Assembly (NCBI GenBank): GCA_003133025.1
Contig: PKZK01000105.1
Location: forward strand, 1 to 10,607
Direction: 5' to 3'
Length of the DNA: 10,607 nt
Source: Vulcanimicrobiota bacterium
Lineage (GTDB): Bacteria > Vulcanimicrobiota > Vulcanimicrobiia > Vulcanimicrobiales > Vulcanimicrobiaceae
Shown here: positions 11 to 10,607 of the stretch, in pieces
Position numbering within the stretch: position 1 is the first letter of the stretch
How the letters are laid out: each line of letters begins with the position of its first letter
Notes under the pieces: model-generated
Told to the model about the DNA's origin: nothing
Database searches by the model: none
The model's input: only the letters and a program-made list of their open reading frames with translations
Made by a program: the position numbers and the translations under genes

Positions 11-26
11 ACTGAGGTAACTCAGT
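11..26. repeat. Short perfect inverted repeat ACTGAG-GTAA-CTCAGT over the rsmI stop codon
   Basis: A 6 bp stem with a 4 nt loop (GNRA-type on the + strand). It is AT-richer than its surroundings, no U-tract is visible and its function is unknown. Confidence 0.35.
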
Positions 27-882
27 CGCGCGTTCCGTTCCCGCCGCGCCGCGCGCGTTTGCGTTCCACGATCGTGGCGTAGACGTCGTCGCGCGCGAGC
101 GCGTGCCGGCGTGCAAGGGTTTTCGCGGCGGTCGCGACCGCGAGGCCGGCGTCTAGTGCCGCCTCGATGTCGGCGTTGAGATCCAGGCCGCTGTTCGGCG
201 CGCCTTGCGCTGCGGAGACGTCGTGCGGCGCAAGAAGTAACACGATCTCACCGCGCACCGGACGTTCGAGGGCGGCGAGCGCTTCCTCGGGTGTACCGAG
301 GATCTGTTGTTCGTGGAATTTCGTCAGTTCGCGTGCGACGAAGACACGCAGGCCGGGCGCGATGTCGTGTAACGCTTCGAGCGTTGCGATCAGGCGGTTC
401 GGCGCCTCGTACCACGCGCTCGTGACTCCGCGCGCGAGTGCCGCGGCAAAGGCGCGCTCCCGTTGGCCGGCCGCGCGCGGCACGAAGCCCTCAAAACTCA
501 AGCCGTTCGTGGGAAAGCCCGAAAGCACGGCGGCCGTAATGAAAGCGACCGGGCCGGGCAGCACCTCGACGACGACCCCGGCTTCGCGCGCCGCATTGAG
601 CAGCTCGCGCCCCGGATCCGAAATGCCGGGCATGCCCGCGTCGCTGACGACTACCACGCGTTCGGCCTGGGCTCGCTCGAGGATCGGCGCGGTCGCGCCG
701 GGGGCGTTCTGTTCGCGGTAGCTCCACAGCGGTTTGCCCGCGATGCCGTAGGCGGCGAGCAGTCGCCGGGCCACGCGGGTGTCCTCGGCCACGAGCAGAT
801 CGCACTCGCGCAGCGCGTCGAGCGCGCGCTGGGTGATGTCGCGCAGGTTGCCCAGCGGCGTGGGCACGAAGGTCAAACTCAA
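22..882 (-). CDS. rsmI: 16S rRNA (cytidine(1402)-2'-O)-methyltransferase
   Basis: The 286 aa product carries the typical RsmI/YraL motifs LTFVPTPLGNLRDITQRAL, AEDTR, VSDAGMPGISDPG, LPGP, FEGF, YEAPNRL and VARELTKFHE, GEIVL. It starts at TTG (880-882 on the - strand), with a weak GAGAG SD-like sequence upstream. Confidence 0.95.
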   Translation of the reverse strand: MSLTFVPTPLGNLRDITQRALDALRECDLLVAEDTRVARRLLAAYGIAGKPLWSYREQNAPGATAPILERAQAERVVVVSDAGMPGISDPGRELLNAAREAGVVVEVLPGPVAFITAAVLSGFPTNGLSFEGFVPRAAGQRERAFAAALARGVTSAWYEAPNRLIATLEALHDIAPGLRVFVARELTKFHEQQILGTPEEALAALERPVRGEIVLLLAPHDVSAAQGAPNSGLDLNADIEAALDAGLAVATAAKTLARRHALARDDVYATIVERKRARRGGNGTRD

Positions 883-2153
883 TGTCTGATCTCTCGAACG
901 GCGGACGCGGATTCGTCCGCGAGATCGAACTGCGCGGTCATATCCTCGACTCGGGCGTCTTCGGCCGCGTCCTCGAGCTGATCATGGACAACGAGTTCGC
1001 GAACTATACCATCGACAACTTCGTGGTGGGCAAGACCGCGACCGAGCCCAGCACCGCCCGGCTGCGCATCGAATCGGCCAGCCCGCAGACGCTGCAAGAC
1101 CTCGTCGACAAACTTCGCGACATCGGCGCGGTCGTGGCCGACGATACCGACGCGGAAACCGAACCTGCCCCGCGCGACGGCGTGTTGCCCGACCAATTTT
1201 ACGCCACCACGAATCTGGAAACCGAGGTGCGCGTCGAGGGCGCCTGGCTGCCGGTCGCGTTCACCGAGATGGATTGCGCGATCGTGATCGATGCCGACGA
1301 CGCGCGGACGGTCGCACCCTCCGACATCAAGGCCGGCGAGGCGGTGGTGGTGGGCCACGGCGGCGTGCGCGTGCAAGCGCTGCAACGTCCGCGGCGCAAG
1401 GCCGTCTTCGAATTCATGTCGAGCGCCGTGTCGAGCGAGAAGCCCAAGGAGTCGCTGATCGCCGAGATCGCGCGCGAACTGGCCGCGACGCGTGCGCAGG
1501 GCAAGCGCGTGCTGTTGGTCGGCGGTCCGGCGATCGTGCACACGGGCGCGGGAAAATACCTCGAACGCTTGATCCGGCACGATTTCATCGACGCGCTCTA
1601 CGCGGGCAACGCGCTCGCGGTGCACGACATCGAGTCGCAGTTCTTCGGCACGTCGCTCGGCGTCGATCTCGACGATGCGTTTCCGGTGGAAGAAGGCCAC
1701 GTGCACCATTTGCGCACGGTCAACCGGATCCGCGCGGCGGGCGGCATCGGACCGGCCATCGACTCGGGCTTGCTCGCCGGCGGCATCATGTTCGAAGCCT
1801 ACCGGAAGCGTATTCCGGTGGTGCTGGCCGGTTCGATCCGCGACGACGGCCCGTTGCCCGACGTGATCACCGACGTGGTCGAGGCGCAGCGCGCGATGCG
1901 CCGCCACGTGCCCGAGATCGGCATGGCGCTCATGGTCTGCACGCTGCTGCACTCGATTGCGGTGGGCAACCTGCTGCCCGCTTCGTGCAAAACGATCTGC
2001 GTCGACATCAATCCGGCCAGCGTGACCAAACTGACCGACCGCGGCACGACCCAGACGCTGGGCCTGGTGATGGATGCGGCCTCGTTTCTGCGCGAGTTGT
2101 GGCACGCGCTGACCGAGGTCCCGGCGCCCAAGGCGGTTCGCAGCCTGCGCTGA
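882..2153 (+). CDS. TIGR00300-family / LOR-SDH conserved-domain protein, putative ornithine cyclodeaminase (homolog of the ArgZ/AgrE C-terminal region)
   Basis: The 423 aa product has motifs IELRGHILDSG, DGVLPDQFYATTN, EMDCAIV, FEFMSSAVSSEKP, GGPAIVHTG, GNALAVHDIE, FGTSLG, GHVHHLRTVN, LAGSIRDDGPLPDVITD, TLLHSIAVGN, CVDINP and KLTDRG. ATG at 882 is preceded by GAAGG. Confidence 0.88.
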   Translation: MSDLSNGGRGFVREIELRGHILDSGVFGRVLELIMDNEFANYTIDNFVVGKTATEPSTARLRIESASPQTLQDLVDKLRDIGAVVADDTDAETEPAPRDGVLPDQFYATTNLETEVRVEGAWLPVAFTEMDCAIVIDADDARTVAPSDIKAGEAVVVGHGGVRVQALQRPRRKAVFEFMSSAVSSEKPKESLIAEIARELAATRAQGKRVLLVGGPAIVHTGAGKYLERLIRHDFIDALYAGNALAVHDIESQFFGTSLGVDLDDAFPVEEGHVHHLRTVNRIRAAGGIGPAIDSGLLAGGIMFEAYRKRIPVVLAGSIRDDGPLPDVITDVVEAQRAMRRHVPEIGMALMVCTLLHSIAVGNLLPASCKTICVDINPASVTKLTDRGTTQTLGLVMDAASFLRELWHALTEVPAPKAVRSLR

Positions 2154-2178
2154 CGGGCACCGGCCCGCCTGCCGATAG
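2150..2178 (+). promoter_or_regulatory. Candidate sigma28-family promoter (CTGACGG...GCCGATAG)
   Basis: GCCGATAG at 2171-2178 matches the sigma28 -10 consensus GCCGATAA at 7 of 8 positions. TGAC at 2151-2154 lies 16 nt upstream. The architecture is the same as at 4709-4737. Confidence 0.5.
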
Positions 2179-2185
2179 GTACTGC

Positions 2186-2209
2186 ATGAGGCCCCGAACC
2201 GCCCCGTGA
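2186..2209 (+). other. Putative leaderless upstream mini-ORF MRPRTAP* coupled to the GT-C start
   Basis: The sequence reads ATG AGG CCC CGA ACC GCC CCG TGA. The ATG is 7 nt after the candidate -10 box, and the TGA (2207-2209) overlaps GTG 2206-2208. Confidence 0.3.
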
Positions 2210-3606
2210 GTCCGGTCGCGATCACCGCCCTGTTCCTGTCTCTCTGGGAGATCATCGGCCGCAAGCTGCCGAGTTTGCCCCAGGGACCCTGGCCGCGCAT
2301 TCCGCGACTGGCCGTGGCCGTGGGTTCGCTCTTGCTCGTGGCCGGGTTCGGCGCGCAACTGCTGTTGCTCGCCTATCAGGCCGGTCACGACGGCGTGCGG
2401 CCCGACTGGGTCTCGCGCACGCCGTTCCTCTACGTTGACGAAGCCTTTCCGTTCGGCCCCGACCACAGGCTGATCTCGCTCGCGGCGCTGGCCGCGGTGC
2501 TCGCGCAGATGGCCGGTTTCTTGGCGCTGGTGGGCGCGGTAGCCCAACCCGCCGAGACGCCCGCCGACGCCGCAGCCGGCCGATTTTCGAGCGCGCTCGC
2601 GCCGCTGGTTGCGGGCGTCCTCGCGGTGCTCGCGCTCTGGTCACCGGCGGTCTCCTCGGGCGACGTGTTCGGGTACGCGGGCCTGGGCATGCTGGGCCCG
2701 CACCCCTTCGAGCGGCCGCCGCATTTCTTCAGGGGCGAATACGCGGCGGTGTTCGACTCGTGGCATCTGCGGCCCACGATCTACGGCCCGCTCTGGACCA
2801 CGCTCAACGCTGCGGTCGTGTCGTTCGGCACCACCTTCGCGGGCAAGGTGCTCGCGCTGCGCGTCTTCGGCTTGGTGCTGTTGCTCGCGTTAACCGGGCT
2901 CGTGCACGTGCTCGTGCGCTCGCGTGCGGTAACGCTCGCGGTGTTGCTCAATCCGATGCTCTGGCTGCAGTTCGTGACCAACGCGCACAACGACATCCTG
3001 GGCGCGTGTCTCTTGGCCGCCGCGCAGATCTTCATCGTGCGCAAGCGCCCGGCGCTTGCGGTGTTCTGCGTGGCGGGCGCGGGCTTGGTGAAGTTTCCAT
3101 TCGTCGTCATGGGCGCGGTTGCGTTTGCGCGGCAAGGCCCGCGTCGCGCCTTTGGGTACGCGGCCGCCGCCGCCGTCGTGTGCTTCGTGCTCTCGGCGAT
3201 CTTCGCGGGGCGTCCCTATCTCGATGCGCTCTTGCTGACGGCGCGCACGCGCGCGGCCTTTACCGATCCCGTGCTCAACGAGATCAAGCTCGTGCTGTCG
3301 CTGGCCACGCTGGCCGTCACCGCGATTATCCTGTTGCGCGGGAAGTATCCGGCGTTTGCGGGCTGGCTCTATACCGGCCTCGCGCCCGTGATGTTCCCGT
3401 GGTATCTGCTCTGGGCGGTGTCCTACTCGCTCTTCTCGCGCACCCTGCTGCTGGCGACGCTGCTCTCGCTGCCGCTCGTGGCGCTGCTTTCCGACGACGT
3501 CTACGCTTTCGACATGCTGGCCTTCGTGCTGCCGGCGGCGGCCGGCTTGTGGCTGCTCTGGAGCACGCGCGCGACGCCGGGGCGCTTGCGACCGGCGAGC
3601 CGATGA
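2206..3606 (+). CDS. Multi-pass GT-C fold glycosyltransferase, MptA/MptB (alpha-1,6-mannosyltransferase)/GT87-like
   Basis: The 466 aa product is very hydrophobic. Motifs SSGDVFGY..LG, HPF, PTIYGPLWT, LNPMLWLQFVTNAHNDILG, LVKFP and FPWYLLW match polyprenol-phosphate-sugar-dependent transferases. The GTG start is uncertain. Confidence 0.8.
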   Translation: MSPVAITALFLSLWEIIGRKLPSLPQGPWPRIPRLAVAVGSLLLVAGFGAQLLLLAYQAGHDGVRPDWVSRTPFLYVDEAFPFGPDHRLISLAALAAVLAQMAGFLALVGAVAQPAETPADAAAGRFSSALAPLVAGVLAVLALWSPAVSSGDVFGYAGLGMLGPHPFERPPHFFRGEYAAVFDSWHLRPTIYGPLWTTLNAAVVSFGTTFAGKVLALRVFGLVLLLALTGLVHVLVRSRAVTLAVLLNPMLWLQFVTNAHNDILGACLLAAAQIFIVRKRPALAVFCVAGAGLVKFPFVVMGAVAFARQGPRRAFGYAAAAAVVCFVLSAIFAGRPYLDALLLTARTRAAFTDPVLNEIKLVLSLATLAVTAIILLRGKYPAFAGWLYTGLAPVMFPWYLLWAVSYSLFSRTLLLATLLSLPLVALLSDDVYAFDMLAFVLPAAAGLWLLWSTRATPGRLRPASR

Positions 3607-4712
3607 AGGCTGCCGCCGAGCGGCCGCATCTCGCCTACGTCGACGGTCTGCGGGCGCTCGCGGCGCTCGGCGTCTTGTGGACGCACGGCATCGGTTGCGC
3701 GTATCGCGCGTGCGCGGGCGCGCACGTCGCGTGGCGCGACATCGGCGATCGCGGGGTCGAACTCTTCTTCGTCGTCTCGGGCTTCTGTTTGGCCTATCCG
3801 TTTCTGGCGCGCAAATATGCCGGACGCCCGGTCAAACTCGATTACGTGCGCTTTCTGGTGCGGCGCTTTTCGCGCATCGCGCCGCCGTACTACGCCGTCC
3901 TCGGTCTCCTCGCGTTGCTCGCGCTGACGCCGATCGGGTTTCCGGGGAACGCGACGCTCGGTCCGATTCCACCGGGCCTCGCGGCCTCGACGTTCGCGCG
4001 CGACGTCGTCTTCGATACCTCCGGCTGGCAACTCTACAACCTGGCCTTCTGGACGCTGGGCGTGGAGATGCACTGGTATTTGGTCTGCCCCCTCTTGATC
4101 GCGCTGTACTTGCGTTGGCCCGCGGCATTTTTCCTGACGATGCCGCTACTCTACGCGCTGAGCTTCTTTCCGCCGTTCGGGTTACCGCACGTCTTCGAAC
4201 TCGCGACGCTGCCGTGCTTCATGCTGGGCATCCTCGCCGCGGATCTGACGTTTCGGAAGAGGGCCGCGGCCCGATACGCGCTGGCCGTCGTGCCGGCGGC
4301 GCTGGTCATCGTGCTCTTCCGAGAAGGCTCGAAGGTCGACTTCACCGATCCGGGCTGGCATCTGCTCTCGTTCCTGATCGTTGTGCTCGCGGGCATGGCG
4401 CCGCTCTCGCGGTTCTTCGCGCTGCGCCCGATGGTCGCGGTGGGCGTGGCCTCGTACAGCATCTACCTCGTGCACTTTCCGGTCATCGGGTTCTTCGAGC
4501 GCCACGGGGTGCCGAGCTGGCCGGCGACGGCGATCGCACTCGGCGCGGGCTTCGCCTTCTGGCGGCTGGTCGAGGTGCCGTTCCTGCGGCCCGAGGTGCG
4601 CGGGCGCATCGAGTCGGGGCTCGAGGCGCTCCTCGGCCGTCTCAAGGTGCCGAGCTCCCTTACCTTACCGGGCCCGCCTCTGGCACCGCGCCCGGGCGGG
4701 CCCGGGGGCTAA
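3603..4712 (+). CDS. Acyltransferase-3 family (OafA/YrhL-like) membrane O-acyltransferase, no SGNH domain
   Basis: The true start is probably ATG 3603, which overlaps the upstream stop as ATGA, giving 369 aa. Motifs are YVDGLRALAALGVLWTH, GVELFFVVSGF, RRFSRIAPPY, FWTLGVEMHWY, GVASYSIYLVHFPVI and WRLVEVPF. The ORF-track extension to 2760 is an out-of-frame shadow. Confidence 0.92.
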   Translation: MKAAAERPHLAYVDGLRALAALGVLWTHGIGCAYRACAGAHVAWRDIGDRGVELFFVVSGFCLAYPFLARKYAGRPVKLDYVRFLVRRFSRIAPPYYAVLGLLALLALTPIGFPGNATLGPIPPGLAASTFARDVVFDTSGWQLYNLAFWTLGVEMHWYLVCPLLIALYLRWPAAFFLTMPLLYALSFFPPFGLPHVFELATLPCFMLGILAADLTFRKRAAARYALAVVPAALVIVLFREGSKVDFTDPGWHLLSFLIVVLAGMAPLSRFFALRPMVAVGVASYSIYLVHFPVIGFFERHGVPSWPATAIALGAGFAFWRLVEVPFLRPEVRGRIESGLEALLGRLKVPSSLTLPGPPLAPRPGGPGG

Positions 4713-4737
4713 CGGGCGGCCCCGGCGGAGCCGAAAC
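4709..4737 (+). promoter_or_regulatory. Candidate internal sigma28-family promoter (CTAACGG...GCCGAAAC)
   Basis: TAAC (4710-4713) is followed by 16 nt, then GCCGAAAC (4730-4737), then 7 nt, then ATG 4745. The spacing is identical to the 2150-2188 site. Confidence 0.5.
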
Positions 4738-4744
4738 GTTGAGT

Positions 4745-5743
4745 ATGGTCGTCTGCGTCATTCCGGCGTTCCGCGCGGCGAGATCGATCGCGGACGTCGT
4801 CCGGGGCGCGCTCGAGTGCGTCGACCACGTGGTGGTCGTGGATGACGCGTGCCCCGAATCGACCGGGAAGATCGTGGAGCGCGAATTTCGCGCCGACCCG
4901 CGGGTCGAGTGCATCGTCCGCACGCAGAACGGCGGCGTGGGCGCCGCCACCAAGACGGGGATCGCCCGCGCGCTCGAACTCGGCGCGACCTTCGTCGTGA
5001 AGCTCGACGCCGACGGCCAGATGGATCCGTACTACATTCCCGCGATGCAAGACGTGCTGCGCTCCAAGCCGCAGGTCGCGCTGGTGAAGGGGAACCGCTT
5101 CTACGACTCCTCGGTCGCGCGCGCGATGCCCACCGTGCGTCTGCTGGGCAACTCCGTGCTGACCCTGCTGGTGCGCATCGCGACGGGTCTCTGGGGCAGC
5201 ATCGACCCGACGAACGGCTACTTCATGGTCCGCGCCTCGAGCTTGAAACGCATTCGCTTCGAGCGTCTGGCGAATCGCTACTATTTCGAGATCTCGCTGC
5301 TGGCCGCGCTCGCGATGCGCCGCTCGGAAATCGCCGAAATGGAGATGCCCGCGATCTACGGCAACCATCCGAGCAGCCTGAACGTCTGGAAAACGGCCGT
5401 CGAGTTTCCGGGAAAGTTACTGGCCACGCTGACCAAACGGCTACTCTGGCAGTACCTGATCAGCGACATGAACGTCGGCTCGGTCATGCTCGGCTTGGGC
5501 TCGTTGCTGATGACGGCCGCCGTGCTGTACGGCGGAGCGCAGTGGATCGAAACGGTGCGTTCGGGCATTCCGCGCACGCCGGGCACGGTCATGCTGGCCT
5601 TTCTGCCGTTCATCACGGGCTTCCAACTGCTGGTCAACGCGCTGATCTACGACGTCCAGTTCTCGCCCAAGGTGCACAACGTGTCGCTCGAAGAGCGCGT
5701 CGAGGTGCCCGCGCTGCCCCTGCGTTCGCTGGTCAACTCGTGA
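4745..5743 (+). CDS. GT2 family, DPM1/GtrB/ArnC-like polyprenol-phosphate glycosyltransferase with two C-terminal TM helices
   Basis: Start is ATG 4745 (332 aa). Motifs are VCVIPAF, VVVVDDACPE, NGGVGAA, VKLDADGQMDP (DxD), KGNRF, R.LGN and DPTNGY. The C-terminal hydrophobic segments are VGSVMLGLGSLLMTAAVLYG and VMLAFLPFITGFQLLVNALIY. Confidence 0.88.
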   Translation: MVVCVIPAFRAARSIADVVRGALECVDHVVVVDDACPESTGKIVEREFRADPRVECIVRTQNGGVGAATKTGIARALELGATFVVKLDADGQMDPYYIPAMQDVLRSKPQVALVKGNRFYDSSVARAMPTVRLLGNSVLTLLVRIATGLWGSIDPTNGYFMVRASSLKRIRFERLANRYYFEISLLAALAMRRSEIAEMEMPAIYGNHPSSLNVWKTAVEFPGKLLATLTKRLLWQYLISDMNVGSVMLGLGSLLMTAAVLYGGAQWIETVRSGIPRTPGTVMLAFLPFITGFQLLVNALIYDVQFSPKVHNVSLEERVEVPALPLRSLVNS

Positions 5744-6555
5744 GCCTCGACCGCGCGGCGCCGGTGCCGCTCAGCGTCGTCGTGCCCTCGTTGAATCAAG
5801 GACACTTCATCCGCCGCACGCTGGACTCCATCCTCGATCAAAGTATCGAAAATCTTGAGGTCATCGTCGTCGACGGCGGCTCGGGCGACGACACGCTCGA
5901 GGTCTTGCGCGGCTACGGCGAGCGCATTACGTGGACGAGCGAACCCGACCGCGGCCAGAGCGACGCGATCAACAAGGGTCTGCGCCGCGCACGCGGCGAG
6001 ATCGTCTGCTACCTCAATTCCGACGACCTCTTCGAACCGGGCGCTCTGCGCGCGGTGCTCGATCACTTTGCCGCGCATCCCGGCACGCAGTGGCTCTTCG
6101 GCCGCTGCCGCATCATCGACGGCGCGGGCGCACCCATCCGTTCGCTGGTGGACACGTACAAAACGCTGTGGGCCCGGTTCGTGCGCCTGCGCGCGTCGCT
6201 GCTCGTGTTGAACTACATACCGCAGCCGGCGACGTTCTGGCGGGCATCGGCGACGGCGCAGGTCGGCCTGATCGACGAGTCGCTCTACTACGCGATGGAC
6301 TACGACCTGTGGTTGCGCCTCTCGACGCTCGGCCGGCCTGCATTCCTCGACCGGTACCTCGCGAGCTTTCGCATCCACGACGGTTCGAAGAGCCTCAACG
6401 GCGCGCGCAAACAGCTCGCGGAAGCGTGCGACGTCGCGCAGCGCCACGGTGCGGGCGCGTTACTGCCCCTTCATCGCGCGCACGATCGGGCGACGTTACT
6501 CGCCTACGGCTCGCGCTACGACCAGAAGATTCAACCGGCAGGCTCGCACGCCTGA
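5740..6555 (+). CDS. GT2 family soluble glycosyltransferase (WcaE/WfgS-like)
   Basis: Start is GTG 5740 in a GTGA overlap (271 aa). Motifs are LSVVVPSLNQG, VIVVDGGSGDDT, SEPDRGQSDAINKG, YLNSDD, PQPATFWR, YAMDYDLWLR and FRIHDGSKS. Confidence 0.92.
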   Translation: MSLDRAAPVPLSVVVPSLNQGHFIRRTLDSILDQSIENLEVIVVDGGSGDDTLEVLRGYGERITWTSEPDRGQSDAINKGLRRARGEIVCYLNSDDLFEPGALRAVLDHFAAHPGTQWLFGRCRIIDGAGAPIRSLVDTYKTLWARFVRLRASLLVLNYIPQPATFWRASATAQVGLIDESLYYAMDYDLWLRLSTLGRPAFLDRYLASFRIHDGSKSLNGARKQLAEACDVAQRHGAGALLPLHRAHDRATLLAYGSRYDQKIQPAGSHA

Positions 6556-6575
6556 CGCCTGAAAAGAGGCGGGAC

Positions 6576-7367
6576 ATGACGGCTTCCGCCATCGCGATCT
6601 TGCAGACGGGCCGGCTCGGCGATCTGTGGTTTACTGTTCCGCTCGCCGACCATCTCGCGAGCCGAGGGCATACCGTCGAAGTGTGGTACGACGGCAATTA
6701 CGGCGACCCGTTTACGTTCTTTCCCTCGGTGACGCCGAAGCCGGTAAGACTCCGGGGCGTGTTGCCGGGAGCGGGCCGCATCGCGACCGTCGCGAACTCC
6801 GCCGCGGCGCAATTGGTTCTCTACGCGCAGCTCAAACGGCTTGGGCGCACGGTGATCTGGAATCAGATCTATCCGTTCCGCGTCGGCGCGTATCTCGAGA
6901 ACAGACCGTACCCTTTCTATTGGTACCGGCACTTTCCCGAGGTCGCGTTCCGCCGGGCGCGCACGACGTTGACGCTTGCGAACGACCGGACGATCCTCTA
7001 TTTTGCCGCGAGCGCGTCGCTGCGCATCGACGACGGCGGCGCGTATCGCAGTTGGCTCGAAGCGAATCTGCACGAACTGGAGACGCATACGGGCTATCGC
7101 GTGATCTACGTGCCGCCGCCCGGCGGCCCTGAGCATCCGCGGTACGAGACCTGGCGCGGCGACCTCGCGGCCTATCAGCAGTTGATCGCTCGTTGCGGCA
7201 TCGTCTTCGGCATCAGCACCTCGGCGCACGTGCTCGGACAGTTGCTCGGTAAGACGGTCATCCCGTGTTATGTGAGTCGCAGCCGGCTCGTCGACACGAT
7301 CGGTGAGGAGAGCGTGCGGCTCTTTCCGGGAGATACGCTCGGGCCCGAGGCGCTGTCGCGCTTGTGA
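6576..7367 (+). CDS. Divergent GT-B glycosyltransferase, GT9 (heptosyltransferase)-like
   Basis: ATG 6576 follows the SD-like AAGAGG (263 aa). The N-terminal ILQTGRLGDLWFTVPLADHL resembles the GT9 GD motif. The C-terminal LAAYQQLIARCGIVFGISTSAHVLGQLLGKTVI resembles GT9 L..LI..ADL.VG.DSG..HLAAALG.PTV. Confidence 0.6.
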   Translation: MTASAIAILQTGRLGDLWFTVPLADHLASRGHTVEVWYDGNYGDPFTFFPSVTPKPVRLRGVLPGAGRIATVANSAAAQLVLYAQLKRLGRTVIWNQIYPFRVGAYLENRPYPFYWYRHFPEVAFRRARTTLTLANDRTILYFAASASLRIDDGGAYRSWLEANLHELETHTGYRVIYVPPPGGPEHPRYETWRGDLAAYQQLIARCGIVFGISTSAHVLGQLLGKTVIPCYVSRSRLVDTIGEESVRLFPGDTLGPEALSRL

Positions 7368-9331
7368 TCGCGCGGCGTCTGGGACTCGCCGCCGTCCTCT
7401 TGGTGTCGCTCGGCCTATCGCTGCTGTGGCTCGTGCGCGTGCCGTTCTTCGAGTCGCCCGACGAAAACGCGCACGCCGACTACGCCTTCACGCTCTACTC
7501 GTTGCGCGCGCCGGTGCCGCTCGCCGGACGTAGGACCGCGACCAACGTGCATCCGCTGGTGGCCTACCTCGAGAGCGCTTCCGAATTCGAAAAACTCCAC
7601 TACAATCCCGACGGCCGCGTGCCGGCCGGGTACGGCAGCCCGGCGTTTCGCCGCACGGTCGCCGCGGGTGCACCCGCCGTGCCGCGCGACTTTCTGGAAC
7701 ACAACGGCGGCCGCGTGCCCTACGTGGCACGCGCCTACTCCTATGGTTACTACGCGTTGGACGCACTCGCGATTTGGGCCGGCGCGCTGCTGAGCAACGG
7801 ATCGGCGACGGCCGAGTTCTTTGCGGCGCGCGCCTTCAACATGCTCTTGCTGCTCTGCTCGCTCGTGCTCGCGTACGCGACGTTCCGCGAGCTGCGCTTG
7901 CCGTACCGCAGCGCGCTCGCGCTGACCGCCACGATCGGATTGTTCCCGTTGACGTCGTGGGTCTCGGCCTACGTCCAGCCCGACAACCTCTCGTTCACCG
8001 CGGTCGCGCTCGCGCTCTATCTCGCCGTTCGCCTGCGCCGCGAGTCCGCAGGCATCGGTGCCTGGGCTGCTCTCGGTTTGGCCTTCGGCCTGTTGGCCTT
8101 GACGAAAGCGCAGTACTACGTGGTCGTCGTCGTGCCGGTGCTCGCGTGGCTGGCGGTACGCGTCGAAACGCCACGCGCTTCGTGGCGCACGTGGGCGGTG
8201 CGCATCGGGCTCTTGCTGCTGCCTTCGCTCTTGGCCGCCGCGTCGGTTCACGGCAGCGTCGTCGGCGCCGACAAACAGGTCACGGGCGGAGCTTCGTTCT
8301 ACGGCAATCCGCTCGGCGCAGCGGCGCATCTGGGACTCGTTCCGTTCGTGCAAACCGCGGTGGGGCTGCTCGCCAAGGCGTTCCTGACCACGTTCTACGA
8401 CGGGCTCTCGTTCGTCGGGTATTGGGGTGGTTTCTCGTGGGACGATACGAAGATCGACTTCGGCTCCGACGAAATAACGCGATTGGTCTATGCCCTTATC
8501 GGCGCCTGTTCGTTGCTGGTCGCGGCGCTCGTGGTGTCGCGCCTGGTTTTCGGCGTGTGGCCGCGGCTGTTCGCGATCGGACGGAGACGCGGTGCGCTCT
8601 CGGCCGCGCGAGTTGCCCTGCGCGACGTGCATCTCAACGCCTACCTGTGCTTCGCGGTCACGATCTTGGGCCTCAACGTCATCACCGGCGGAGGGCTCGG
8701 CTCGGCCGGGCGCTATTGGCTGCCGTTGATCGTCTCGGCGTTGCTCTGCGCGACGCGCTGCGCGCCGCGGGCGCTGCCGCGGCGCTACCGGCGGCCGGTT
8801 GCAGTGAGCATCGGCGGCGCGCTGCTGGCCTACTCGGTCGTGGCCGCGGCCGCTTCGCCGGCGTCGATCGAAGCGCGCTTCTATAGGCCGCCGGCGCACC
8901 CGCTCGATGCGGAGCGGGATGCATTGATCCGTCACGTCGGCGGCCTGCGTCCGCCCGCGCCCGGCGCGCGGCTTCGTTTCGCGGCGAACGCGATCGTCGA
9001 GGTCGACGGCGTCGCGCTCGATTCGCACAACACCGCGCCCGTCGACTACGTCGATGTCGCGGTCGACGGCGTGCGGACCGTGCGCGCCCGCTACGGACTG
9101 CCGGAACCGGCCGTCGCTTCATCGATGAACGACGATCGTTTACTGCATACGGGGTACGTCGCGCGCCTCGACTTGAGCAAGCTCGCGCCCGGCGATCACG
9201 AAATCGGGCTGCTGGTCGGCGAGCCCGGGCGCGCGTCGCCGTGGAAGAGTTTGTCCACGGTGCCGATTACGCTCGAGGCGCCCGCGAGCGGCGCTCAGAC
9301 CGGGGGAATGAAGCGCCGGGCGCCGAGATAA
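7364..9331 (+). CDS. Multi-pass GT-C membrane protein (DUF2142/PMT-like) with C-terminal extracytoplasmic Ig-like domain
   Basis: The GTG start lies in a GTGA overlap (655 aa). TM1 is followed by VPFFESPDENAH (PDExxH), then YYAL, ARAFN, VQPDNL, LTK and GRYWLP. A beta-rich C-terminal domain occupies about 8993-9277. Confidence 0.75.
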   Translation: MIARRLGLAAVLLVSLGLSLLWLVRVPFFESPDENAHADYAFTLYSLRAPVPLAGRRTATNVHPLVAYLESASEFEKLHYNPDGRVPAGYGSPAFRRTVAAGAPAVPRDFLEHNGGRVPYVARAYSYGYYALDALAIWAGALLSNGSATAEFFAARAFNMLLLLCSLVLAYATFRELRLPYRSALALTATIGLFPLTSWVSAYVQPDNLSFTAVALALYLAVRLRRESAGIGAWAALGLAFGLLALTKAQYYVVVVVPVLAWLAVRVETPRASWRTWAVRIGLLLLPSLLAAASVHGSVVGADKQVTGGASFYGNPLGAAAHLGLVPFVQTAVGLLAKAFLTTFYDGLSFVGYWGGFSWDDTKIDFGSDEITRLVYALIGACSLLVAALVVSRLVFGVWPRLFAIGRRRGALSAARVALRDVHLNAYLCFAVTILGLNVITGGGLGSAGRYWLPLIVSALLCATRCAPRALPRRYRRPVAVSIGGALLAYSVVAAAASPASIEARFYRPPAHPLDAERDALIRHVGGLRPPAPGARLRFAANAIVEVDGVALDSHNTAPVDYVDVAVDGVRTVRARYGLPEPAVASSMNDDRLLHTGYVARLDLSKLAPGDHEIGLLVGEPGRASPWKSLSTVPITLEAPASGAQTGGMKRRAPR

Positions 9332-9908: not shown

Positions 9909-10607
9909 TTGAAGCGACGTCACTCTTTCGACGCGCTCCCCTTCGCGTTGTGGGTTGCGGCCATGGCCGCGATCGCGGGCGTCACGGCCGTGGCCTTGCC
10001 GCACGCCGGTCCGTCCCTCGACTTTGCCCAAGGCACGCGTGTCGCCGGTCACATCGGCGACCGCACCTTGACGCCGCTGCCGGTGATCCAAAACGCGCCC
10101 GGCGCGTGGCCGCTCCTCATCGGATATCTGGCGGCATTCGGCTGCGCCTGCGCGGCGTACGCGGCGATCTGCCGTCTGCCCGACCCCGGCGCGCGAACGA
10201 TCTGGATCGCCTTCGCGCTCGGCGCGGCGGCGATGCTCGCAGTCGGTTTTTATCCGACGAGCGATCCGTATGCCTACGCGCTCTACGCCCTCGAGGCCGG
10301 CCCTCTGCGACTCGATCCCTACGTCACGCAGTCGCTCGCGGGCACGTCGCTGCCCTGGGCCGCGCAGTTGCTCGCGATCTTTCCCGACCCGGACGCCTAC
10401 GTGCGGCATTGCAATTACGGTCCGCTCGCCGTCTTCGCCTACGCCGCGCTCGCGTTGCCGCTCGCACACGCACCGCTGGTCGCCTATCTGTTCGCCGAAC
10501 GCATGTTCGGCATCGCGGGCGTCGCGCTGACGGGACTCGCACTCGCCCGCAGCGCGGCCGGCGTCGAGGGTCGCAAGCGCCTGGCGACATACGTGCTGCA
10601 TCCGCTG
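9909..10607 (+). CDS. Second MptA/MptB-like GT-C glycosyltransferase, 3'-truncated by the window edge (not in ORF track)
   Basis: Translated by hand from TTG 9909 (alternative ATG 9963; in-frame TAG at 9873-9875 upstream), the frame stays open to the window end. It reads MKRRHSFDALPFALWVAAM...FYPTSDPYAYALY...LDPY...HCNYGPLAVF...ERMFG...YVLHPL, and the S-D-x-Y-x-Y, DPY, YGPL and LHPL motifs parallel those of 2206..3606. Confidence 0.82.
   Translation, partial: MKRRHSFDALPFALWVAAMAAIAGVTAVALPHAGPSLDFAQGTRVAGHIGDRTLTPLPVIQNAPGAWPLLIGYLAAFGCACAAYAAICRLPDPGARTIWIAFALGAAAMLAVGFYPTSDPYAYALYALEAGPLRLDPYVTQSLAGTSLPWAAQLLAIFPDPDAYVRHCNYGPLAVFAYAALALPLAHAPLVAYLFAERMFGIAGVALTGLALARSAAGVEGRKRLATYVLHPL

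Follow-up and report, generated by a model that had tools for sequence, protein, structure and literature searches.

Two predicted sigma-28 promoters in a glycosylation block

The window examined here is a 10,607 nt stretch of genome G000, from a Vulcanimicrobiota bacterium (3.35 Mb, 66% G+C, 80% complete). It carries a block of glycosyltransferase and acyltransferase genes together with two similar promoter-like sites, site 1 (2150–2188) and site 2 (4709–4747). We conclude that both sites are probably promoters for the WhiG/FliA-family sigma factor encoded on contig C21 of the same genome, which would place the glycosylation block in a small sigma-28 regulon. Site 1 reads CTGACGG-N14-GCCGATAG-N7-ATG and site 2 reads CTAACGG-N14-GCCGAAAC-N7-ATG. 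Their boxes, with scores from the lineage matrix described below, are:

2150–2156, plus strand: −35 box of site 1, CTGACGG; score 1.6 (weak)
2171–2178, plus strand: −10 box of site 1, GCCGATAG; separated by 14 bases from the −35 heptamer and by 7 from the ATG; score 11.8
4709–4715, plus strand: −35 box of site 2, CTAACGG; score 7.4
4730–4737, plus strand: −10 box of site 2, GCCGAAAC; the gap is 14 bases to the −35 heptamer and 7 to the ATG; score 10.5

A preliminary description of the window had singled out these 39-base strings, which were found exactly as quoted, and the gene layout confirms its statement that both are intergenic. Its reading of them as sigma-28/WhiG-type promoters with a start codon at the predicted +1 agrees with the −10 box matches, the spacing, the matrix scores and the presence of a cognate sigma factor. 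The two strings are identical at 22/39 positions without a gap. The full pattern given in that description matches G000 only twice, at 2150 and 4709, but as it was built from both sites this count is post hoc. In the 36 bases before the ATG, 19 positions are common to the two sites; when the upstream regions of all ATG genes in G000 are compared in pairs, 915 of 418,155 pairs (0.2%) agree at least as well.

Both −10 boxes fit the sigma-28 octamer GCCGATAA with its central CGA. Compared with the −35 heptamer CTAAAGT, site 2 matches at 5/7 positions and site 1 at 4/7, and homologs have CTCAACG or CTGACGT at the latter position. The −35 heptamer of site 2, with the same 14-base spacer, recurs letter for letter in the flagellar region of the related genome G009 (L168). 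Counted from the TAAN tetramer, the spacer is 16 bases at both sites (FliA 15, WhiG 16). Two reservations in the preliminary description have lost their force. A spacer of N14, one base longer than the E. coli consensus, is the commoner one in this lineage (22/38 promoters) and is the published WhiG spacing, while the overlap of each −35 box with the stop codon of the gene upstream (TGA 2151–2153 and TAA 4710–4712) is not seen in most homologous loci.

The promoter of the lineage and its distribution in G000

The flagellin loci of relatives (30 fetched and 27 used, with two from G027 and one weak match dropped) contain 21 promoters of the form CTAAAGT-N13 (12) or N14 (9)-GCCGATAN. A matrix was derived from 38 sites in 18 stretches around flagellin in 11 relatives, using sites with at least 5/7 matches to CTAAAGT plus a GCCGA or TCCGA box and no G000 sequence. 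Leave-one-out scores of the training sites were 12.2–26.8. When the matrix was applied to G000, site 2 scored 17.9 (rank 7) and site 1 scored 13.4 (rank 119 of the 262 positions scoring at least 12). Several training sites lie 7–9 bases before the starts of rod-protein, FliW, polysaccharide-synthesis, GT1 and TPR-GT2 genes, and 13/18 proteins downstream of the flagellar-region sites have a Pfam match.

The preferred spacer and distance stand above background across G000. At spacer 14 there are 27 intergenic matches that score at least 12 and lie no more than 250 bases from a start, compared with 6–12 at the 12 other spacers. In a grid of seven spacers by five distance bins over 1729 upstream regions, sites scoring at least 10 with spacer 14 and lying 6–9 bases before a start occur in 8/1729 regions, compared with 0–3 in the 34 other cells. 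Noise is expected to account for about half of the 43 sites scoring at least 10. Leaving out the two window genes and one tiny open reading frame (ORF), 26/40 downstream proteins have a Pfam match, and the predicted targets include two acyltransferase-3 proteins, GT87, FkbM, Crp, RND, SPFH, Flp pilin, an ECF sigma factor and two kinases.

Envelope transferase genes, here acyltransferase-3, GT87, MptA/B-like and GT2 genes with free upstream DNA (two of them without a gene call), have a site scoring at least 10 within 60 bases in 5/22 cases, compared with 19/2079 other genes (P = 3e-6). With the contig studied here removed, the count is 3/19 (P = 9e-4). Two acyltransferase-3 genes on contig C43 (134–2535, minus strand) share the −35 box CTAAGGT, spacer 14 and a GA/TCGAACA −10 box, and score 9.8 each. 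Counting this pair, C43:10748 and C192, a site is present in 4/6 acyltransferase-3 genes with free upstream DNA. The regulon predicted from these matches is likely to be small and rich in envelope glycosyl- and acyltransferases.

Simple pattern counts were less informative. The E. coli pattern TAAA-N15-GCCGATA has no match in G000, because the lineage spacer differs. In 61 genomes of the class, pattern counts gave 37 against 11 for the reversed pattern, and another pattern count matched in 54/61. Whole-genome counts were rejected as evidence, as spacer-shifted controls in G000 were as high and 14/46 inspected matches of the second count lay inside coding sequence, and the 37-versus-11 count was used solely to find example loci.

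Conservation of the sites

Three features downstream of the sites bear on their conservation:

2186–2209, plus strand: upstream ORF of seven codons (MRPRTAP*) whose ATG coincides with the predicted +1 and whose TGA overlaps with the next GTG (GTGA)
2206–3606, plus strand: MptA/B-family-like membrane glycosyltransferase (GT-C), 466 aa, assigned from the ESM Atlas
4745–5743, plus strand: GT2 glycosyltransferase (PF00535) whose ATG falls on the predicted +1; the start residue is the same in homologs

Site 1 was compared across 10 homologs of the MptA/B-like gene (at least 45% identity, from other organisms and with upstream DNA present; L225, L226 and L233, from the same species, and L234, which is cut, were left out). 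In 9/10, a −10 box is followed 6–7 bases later by RTG. The RTG opens a mini-ORF ending in an RTGA overlap in 7/9, with seven codons in L227–L231 and eight in L050 and L320, and is itself the in-frame gene start in L232 and L321. The −35 box is CTCAACG at N14 in five homologs and a variant of it in two, and the −10 box plus the next 10 bases of site 1 are identical in L227 and L228.

Site 2 was compared across 28 GT2 homologs from 401 genomes. In the four closest (54–56% identity), the best site has spacer 14 and lies 7 bases before an in-frame ATG, and none has a same-strand gene ending at the −35 box. The sites score 15.3, 7.8, 8.4 and 10.1, and 7/1729 G000 regions reach 7.8 in this register. 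Conservation was thus found for both sites, in the four closest of the 28 GT2 homologs and in 9/10 MptA/B-like homologs.

The preliminary description had proposed that both messages are leaderless. This remains the prediction for ATG 4745, which is the start of the GT2 gene and has no Shine-Dalgarno sequence ahead of it, and is not supported for the first gene of the block, as ATG 2186 is out of frame with GTG 2206 and opens the mini-ORF instead. The length of the mini-ORF (seven to eight codons) and its stop overlap are conserved and its peptide is not, which points to coupling rather than attenuation.

ATG 2186 might instead be incidental, with a purine at +1, a weak ribosome-binding site (GAGG or GGAG) in a 20-base leader and no coupling; this is the main alternative for site 1, and we regard it as rather unlikely. 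GGAG or GAGG does directly follow the RTG in the window and five homologs, but it lies 13–15 bases from the start, compared with 4–10 genome-wide, and L050 and L320 have neither motif yet keep the RTG and an eight-codon ORF (a 3-base change that preserves the frame). The overlapping TGA follows from the Ser second codon of the MptA/B-like gene, and transcription starts tend to be purine-pyrimidine, according to part of the mycobacterial study (10.1101/834739). Against this, the same RTG is an in-frame start in L232 and L321.

A WhiG/FliA-family sigma factor in a genome in which no flagellin was found

G000 has 21 sigma-70 region-2 matches. The one at C21:3001–3816 scores 253 bits on TIGR02479 (cut-off 189.6) and is the sole FliA/WhiG match over the cut-off, so a gene for a sigma factor of the required family is present. 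Its nearest solved structures are Streptomyces WhiG (E 1e-68) and E. coli FliA (5e-46). We take structures 6PFJ and 6PFV, whose chain titles say only sigma factor, to be WhiG.

Assignment of the sites to another sigma factor (SigH or a second FliA-like protein, encoded on C81) is the main alternative for both and seems improbable. The C81 protein adjoins two remaining flagellar-rod-like genes, but its 131 bits on TIGR02479 fall under the cut-off and a Glu replaces the Arg of the 'PR' motif that C21, WhiG and FliA share. We equate this Arg with R97, which contacts the extended −10 element in the Pseudomonas aeruginosa complex, with the numbering inferred. The −10 box of site 2 resembles that of SigH (CGAA) and scores well in a SigH-type class, but the RGG of that class, at 18–19 bases, is found at neither site and the class posteriors are 0.02 and 0.09. 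A SigH-type reading of both sites was rejected on this −35 position.

In C81:15492–18394, two flagellar-rod-like genes, a small gene and the divergent FliA-like sigma gene remain, although no other part of the flagellum was found, and a similar second FliA-like match occurs in many relatives. At C188:1219–1829, a SigB/F-like sigma gene lies in two frames around N bases, probably through an assembly slip.

A FliA/WhiG protein over the cut-off was found in 55/61 genomes of the class and flagellin in 22/61, including 0/19 in one family. These tallies include the unpublished genomes G018, G020, G027, G028, G048 and G059, which are used for no sequence-level claim. In the 80% complete G000, there was no match to PF00669, PF00700, PF00771, PF01706 or PF04316 (flagellin, FlhA, FliG and FlgM). 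FlgM queries from four relatives found nothing in G000 with tblastn, and the Pfam FlgM model is insensitive here (3/36 in the family). The RsiG-type motif E(X)3S(X)2R(X)3Q(X)3D had one match among the 3333 proteins of this incomplete genome, a 285 aa protein resembling an unrelated DNA-binding regulator.

In G009, a csrA-like gene is followed by flagellin and an approximately 30 kb glycosylation island and then by rpsB. In G000, the csrA-like gene is 203 bases from an rpsB-like start (names by likeness) on a single contig. The island has therefore been deleted and is not merely unassembled, and the motility context suggested in the preliminary description is not supported for G000.

Weighing the promoter prediction

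A number of observations weigh against our interpretation. The −35 box of site 1 is weak, 118 positions in G000 outscore this site, many of them inside genes, and the rule used to build the matrix itself imposed GCCGA or TCCGA and spacers of 13–14. Gene starts in G000 were taken from our own gene caller (3333 genes), and the transferase families were picked after the target list had been seen. The site 2 register is missing from 24/28 GT2 homologs and from 7/7 others (46–53% identity), and a scan of the genome collection with the GT2 protein found only two 50% homologs, both without the site. At site 1, L227 retains the −10 box and has no recognisable −35 box, L228 has CTGACGT at N15, with no gene ending there, and the promoter is missing from L322 and from two MptA/B-like paralogs on G000 contig C66. 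Related genomes are non-independent samples, a TGA overlap arises automatically if a gene begins Met/Val-Ser or -Asn, and a second FliA-like sigma factor exists.

The likeness of the two sites could also be a matter of chance in GC-rich gaps that begin with stop codons, or the sites could be dead relics of the lost flagellar regulon. We consider this very improbable. While a stop codon does overlap each −35 box and many high matrix matches are inside genes, the register is kept in divergent homologs with no gene ending at the −35 box, and the genome-wide peak of spacer and distance is sharp. A short GC hairpin is possible at site 1, but folding at the sites was no better than that of shuffles (z −0.8 and −0.7), and a hairpin or terminator at the gaps was rejected. 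Flagellin was also not matched in any of five homolog-bearing genomes tested (0/5; 76–91% complete), which argues against relics. Sigma-70 promoters were rejected too, with one site in a scan of the window compared with 0.9 expected, and none in the two gaps.

The two paralogs at C66:9928–14258 flank an ECF sigma gene and a likely anti-sigma gene. A sigma-28-type site (12.1) between the first paralog and the ECF gene opens a 53-codon ORF that overlaps the ECF start.

Metatranscriptomes were of little help. Two runs contain 0.10 and 0.05 of the words of the stretch. Near-identical X19 contigs cover 2224–2434, 3901–4081, 4771–5012 and 5046–5193, and so begin just after both predicted starts. They were not counted as evidence because contigs show neither starts nor strand and DNA may be present.

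Structure and origin of the block

The remaining genes of the block and the gene upstream of it are:

882–2153, plus strand: TIGR00300 ornithine-cyclodeaminase-like gene, upstream of the block
3603–4712, plus strand: acyltransferase-3 gene (PF01757, E 1e-25), overlapping the previous gene (ATGA)
5740–6555, plus strand: second GT2 glycosyltransferase (PF00535), overlapping the previous gene (GTGA)
6576–7367, plus strand: 263 aa protein, GT9-like as a lead only, from Atlas features; no Pfam match
7364–9331, plus strand: DUF2142 membrane protein (PF09913), the last gene of the block

The MptA/B-like protein has no Pfam or NCBIfam match and resembles an MptA_B_family cluster of the ESM Atlas (features 1.00, structure TM 0.81) in which Vulcanimicrobiota is the commonest phylum. 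By Atlas features, the GT9-like protein scores 0.96 against clusters in which 46% and 81% of the members carry PF01075.

The block is flanked by the TIGR00300 gene and an NlpC/P60 gene. As these two genes adjoin in three related loci (L025, L035 and L039), 2154–9294 is an insertion. The cluster in L228 contains the GT-C gene, two acyltransferase genes and DUF2142 in that order, without the GT2-GT2-GT9 genes, and the acyltransferase tails differ from that in the window, where the stop codon TAA falls inside the −35 box of site 2. For these reasons, the GT2-GT2-GT9 genes probably entered later, together with site 2. Sequencing runs containing the stretch are mostly peat metagenomes.

Upstream, a minus-strand TP_methylase gene (window 22–882), presumably rsmI-like, and the plus-strand TIGR00300 gene are arranged head to head, almost without a gap, and this pair is preserved in most relatives. 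A plus-strand gene for a GT-C-looking membrane protein (window 9909–10607), divergent from the NlpC/P60 gene and cut by the contig end, has no family match and no sigma-28 site.

A probable SigH-type class of promoters

SigH (Spo0H) promoters have the form AGGA-N17/18-GAAT (PMC12456013), and SigH of G000 is over its cut-off. A four-class expectation-maximisation (EM) model overfitted, with the background class falling to 1%, and only its SigH-like class was used and then re-tested. The resulting pattern, RGG-N18/19-GAA-N9-11-ATG, which is likely to represent a leaderless SigH-type class, is found before 63/915 G000 ATG genes with free upstream DNA, compared with 3.4 in shuffles and 20.8 ± 4.0 (maximum 35) in 1000 half-swaps. 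A Shine-Dalgarno sequence precedes only five of the 63, and a TANNNT class is smaller (32/915).

One copy, at window 844–884 (plus strand), precedes the gene at 882 and lies inside the first codons of the divergent gene; of 16 loci of the 882 gene, 13 have the pattern in a looser version. The third gap of the block (window 6537–6578, plus strand), before ATG 6576, was assigned to the SigH-type class in EM (posterior 0.9) and also contains GAGG. A second sigma factor may drive the last two genes of the block.

Predicted expression of the block

From the boxes, their spacing and conservation, the sigma gene and the loss of the island, we infer where transcription starts and how the messages would be translated. 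The C21 holoenzyme would begin both transcripts at the A of the ATG. The message from 2186 would open with the AUG of the seven-codon ORF, and a ribosome would stop at the TGA that overlaps GTG 2206, restart on the MptA/B-like gene and move from there to the acyltransferase gene via the second overlap. The message from 4745 would begin at the GT2 start codon, with ribosomes loading without a leader, and would carry the two GT2 genes, the GT9-like gene and the DUF2142 gene. If site 2 arrived with the GT2-GT2-GT9 cassette, as is probable, the acyltransferase frame would now end at the first stop available, the TAA in that −35 box. While the sigma factor is active, the products of the block would probably alter the surface glycan in both its sugars and its O-acyl groups, so that its make-up would depend on conditions.

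A broader proposal is more tentative, and we put it somewhat below even chances. In the class that includes Vulcanimicrobium, a WhiG-like sigma-28 may have outlived the flagellum and become a surface-remodelling switch for GT-C, GT2 and O-acyltransferase genes through leaderless messages, some of them coupled via mini-ORFs, with an anti-sigma factor that is neither FlgM nor RsiG. If true, this would be a second origin, outside the Actinomycetota, of a non-motility sigma-28 programme, and would point to a cell state of these soil and peat bacteria that has not been described. The findings also suggest a route for repurposing a motility regulator: in flagellated relatives, promoters of this type are already used for glycosylation genes next to flagellin, and once the island is lost they would be used for envelope transferases.

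We found nothing on leaderless or WhiG promoters in Eremiobacterota/Vulcanimicrobi- in the open-access literature, which is the part covered by our search. Within it, this is the first promoter code found for the phylum, and it provides a short list of predicted targets for a sigma-28 retained in the absence of flagella. Sigma-28 boxes, leaderless starts and overlaps are individually known, as is translational coupling through start-stop overlap; what would be new is the role of such promoters. One gene family contains both members with a direct leaderless start and members with a mini-ORF overlap, and so provides a natural test set for the replacement of Shine-Dalgarno sequences by leaderless loading and by coupling.

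Comparison with known systems

The two boxes and the predicted +1 position are the same as in FliA/SigD class 3 flagellar promoters, and flagellated relatives use FliA/SigD-type boxes for flagellin, FliW, rod proteins and flagellar-region TPR-GT2 genes. In part of a report on the Pseudomonas fliC complex, the −10 element is at −15 to −8, +1 is 7 bases after the octamer and the P. aeruginosa fliC boxes are TCTAAAG and GCCGATAA (PMC12784957). G000 differs in that the spacer is one base longer and that flagellin, FlhA, FliG and FlgM were not found in it.

Leaderless short ORFs head operons in mycobacteria, as described in part of that study (bioRxiv 10.1101/834739). Site 1 is similar in that a short ORF precedes the main gene and begins with an RUG on the predicted +1. 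It differs from the mycobacterial examples covered there in having a promoter of the sigma-28 type and no conserved peptide or regulatory codon run in the mini-ORF.

The closest parallel is with WhiG of the Actinomycetota, for which we rely on portions of three sources. The WhiG1 consensus is CTCA-N16/17-GCCGAACT and that of WhiG2 is T(A/C)AA-N16-GCCGATAA (bioRxiv 10.64898/2026.01.14.699351), WhiG targets have N16 spacing (PMC7005675), and whiH is leaderless, with 7 bases from the −10 octamer to GTG (PMC3160421). The G000 system differs in its phylum, in −35 boxes that are each one base off the WhiG1 tetramer and in that no protein with an RsiG-type motif, beyond the apparently unrelated regulator, was found. 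Its predicted targets, envelope glycosyl- and acyltransferases, are not among the main classes in the section on WhiG regulons of the first of these sources. Like the WhiG promoters of whiH and whiI, the G000 sites have the same −10 box, with N16 after TAAN and N17 after CTNA. The C21 protein is nearest to a solved Streptomyces WhiG, whiH offers a leaderless example, and in both systems, as predicted here for G000, sigma-28 is used outside motility.

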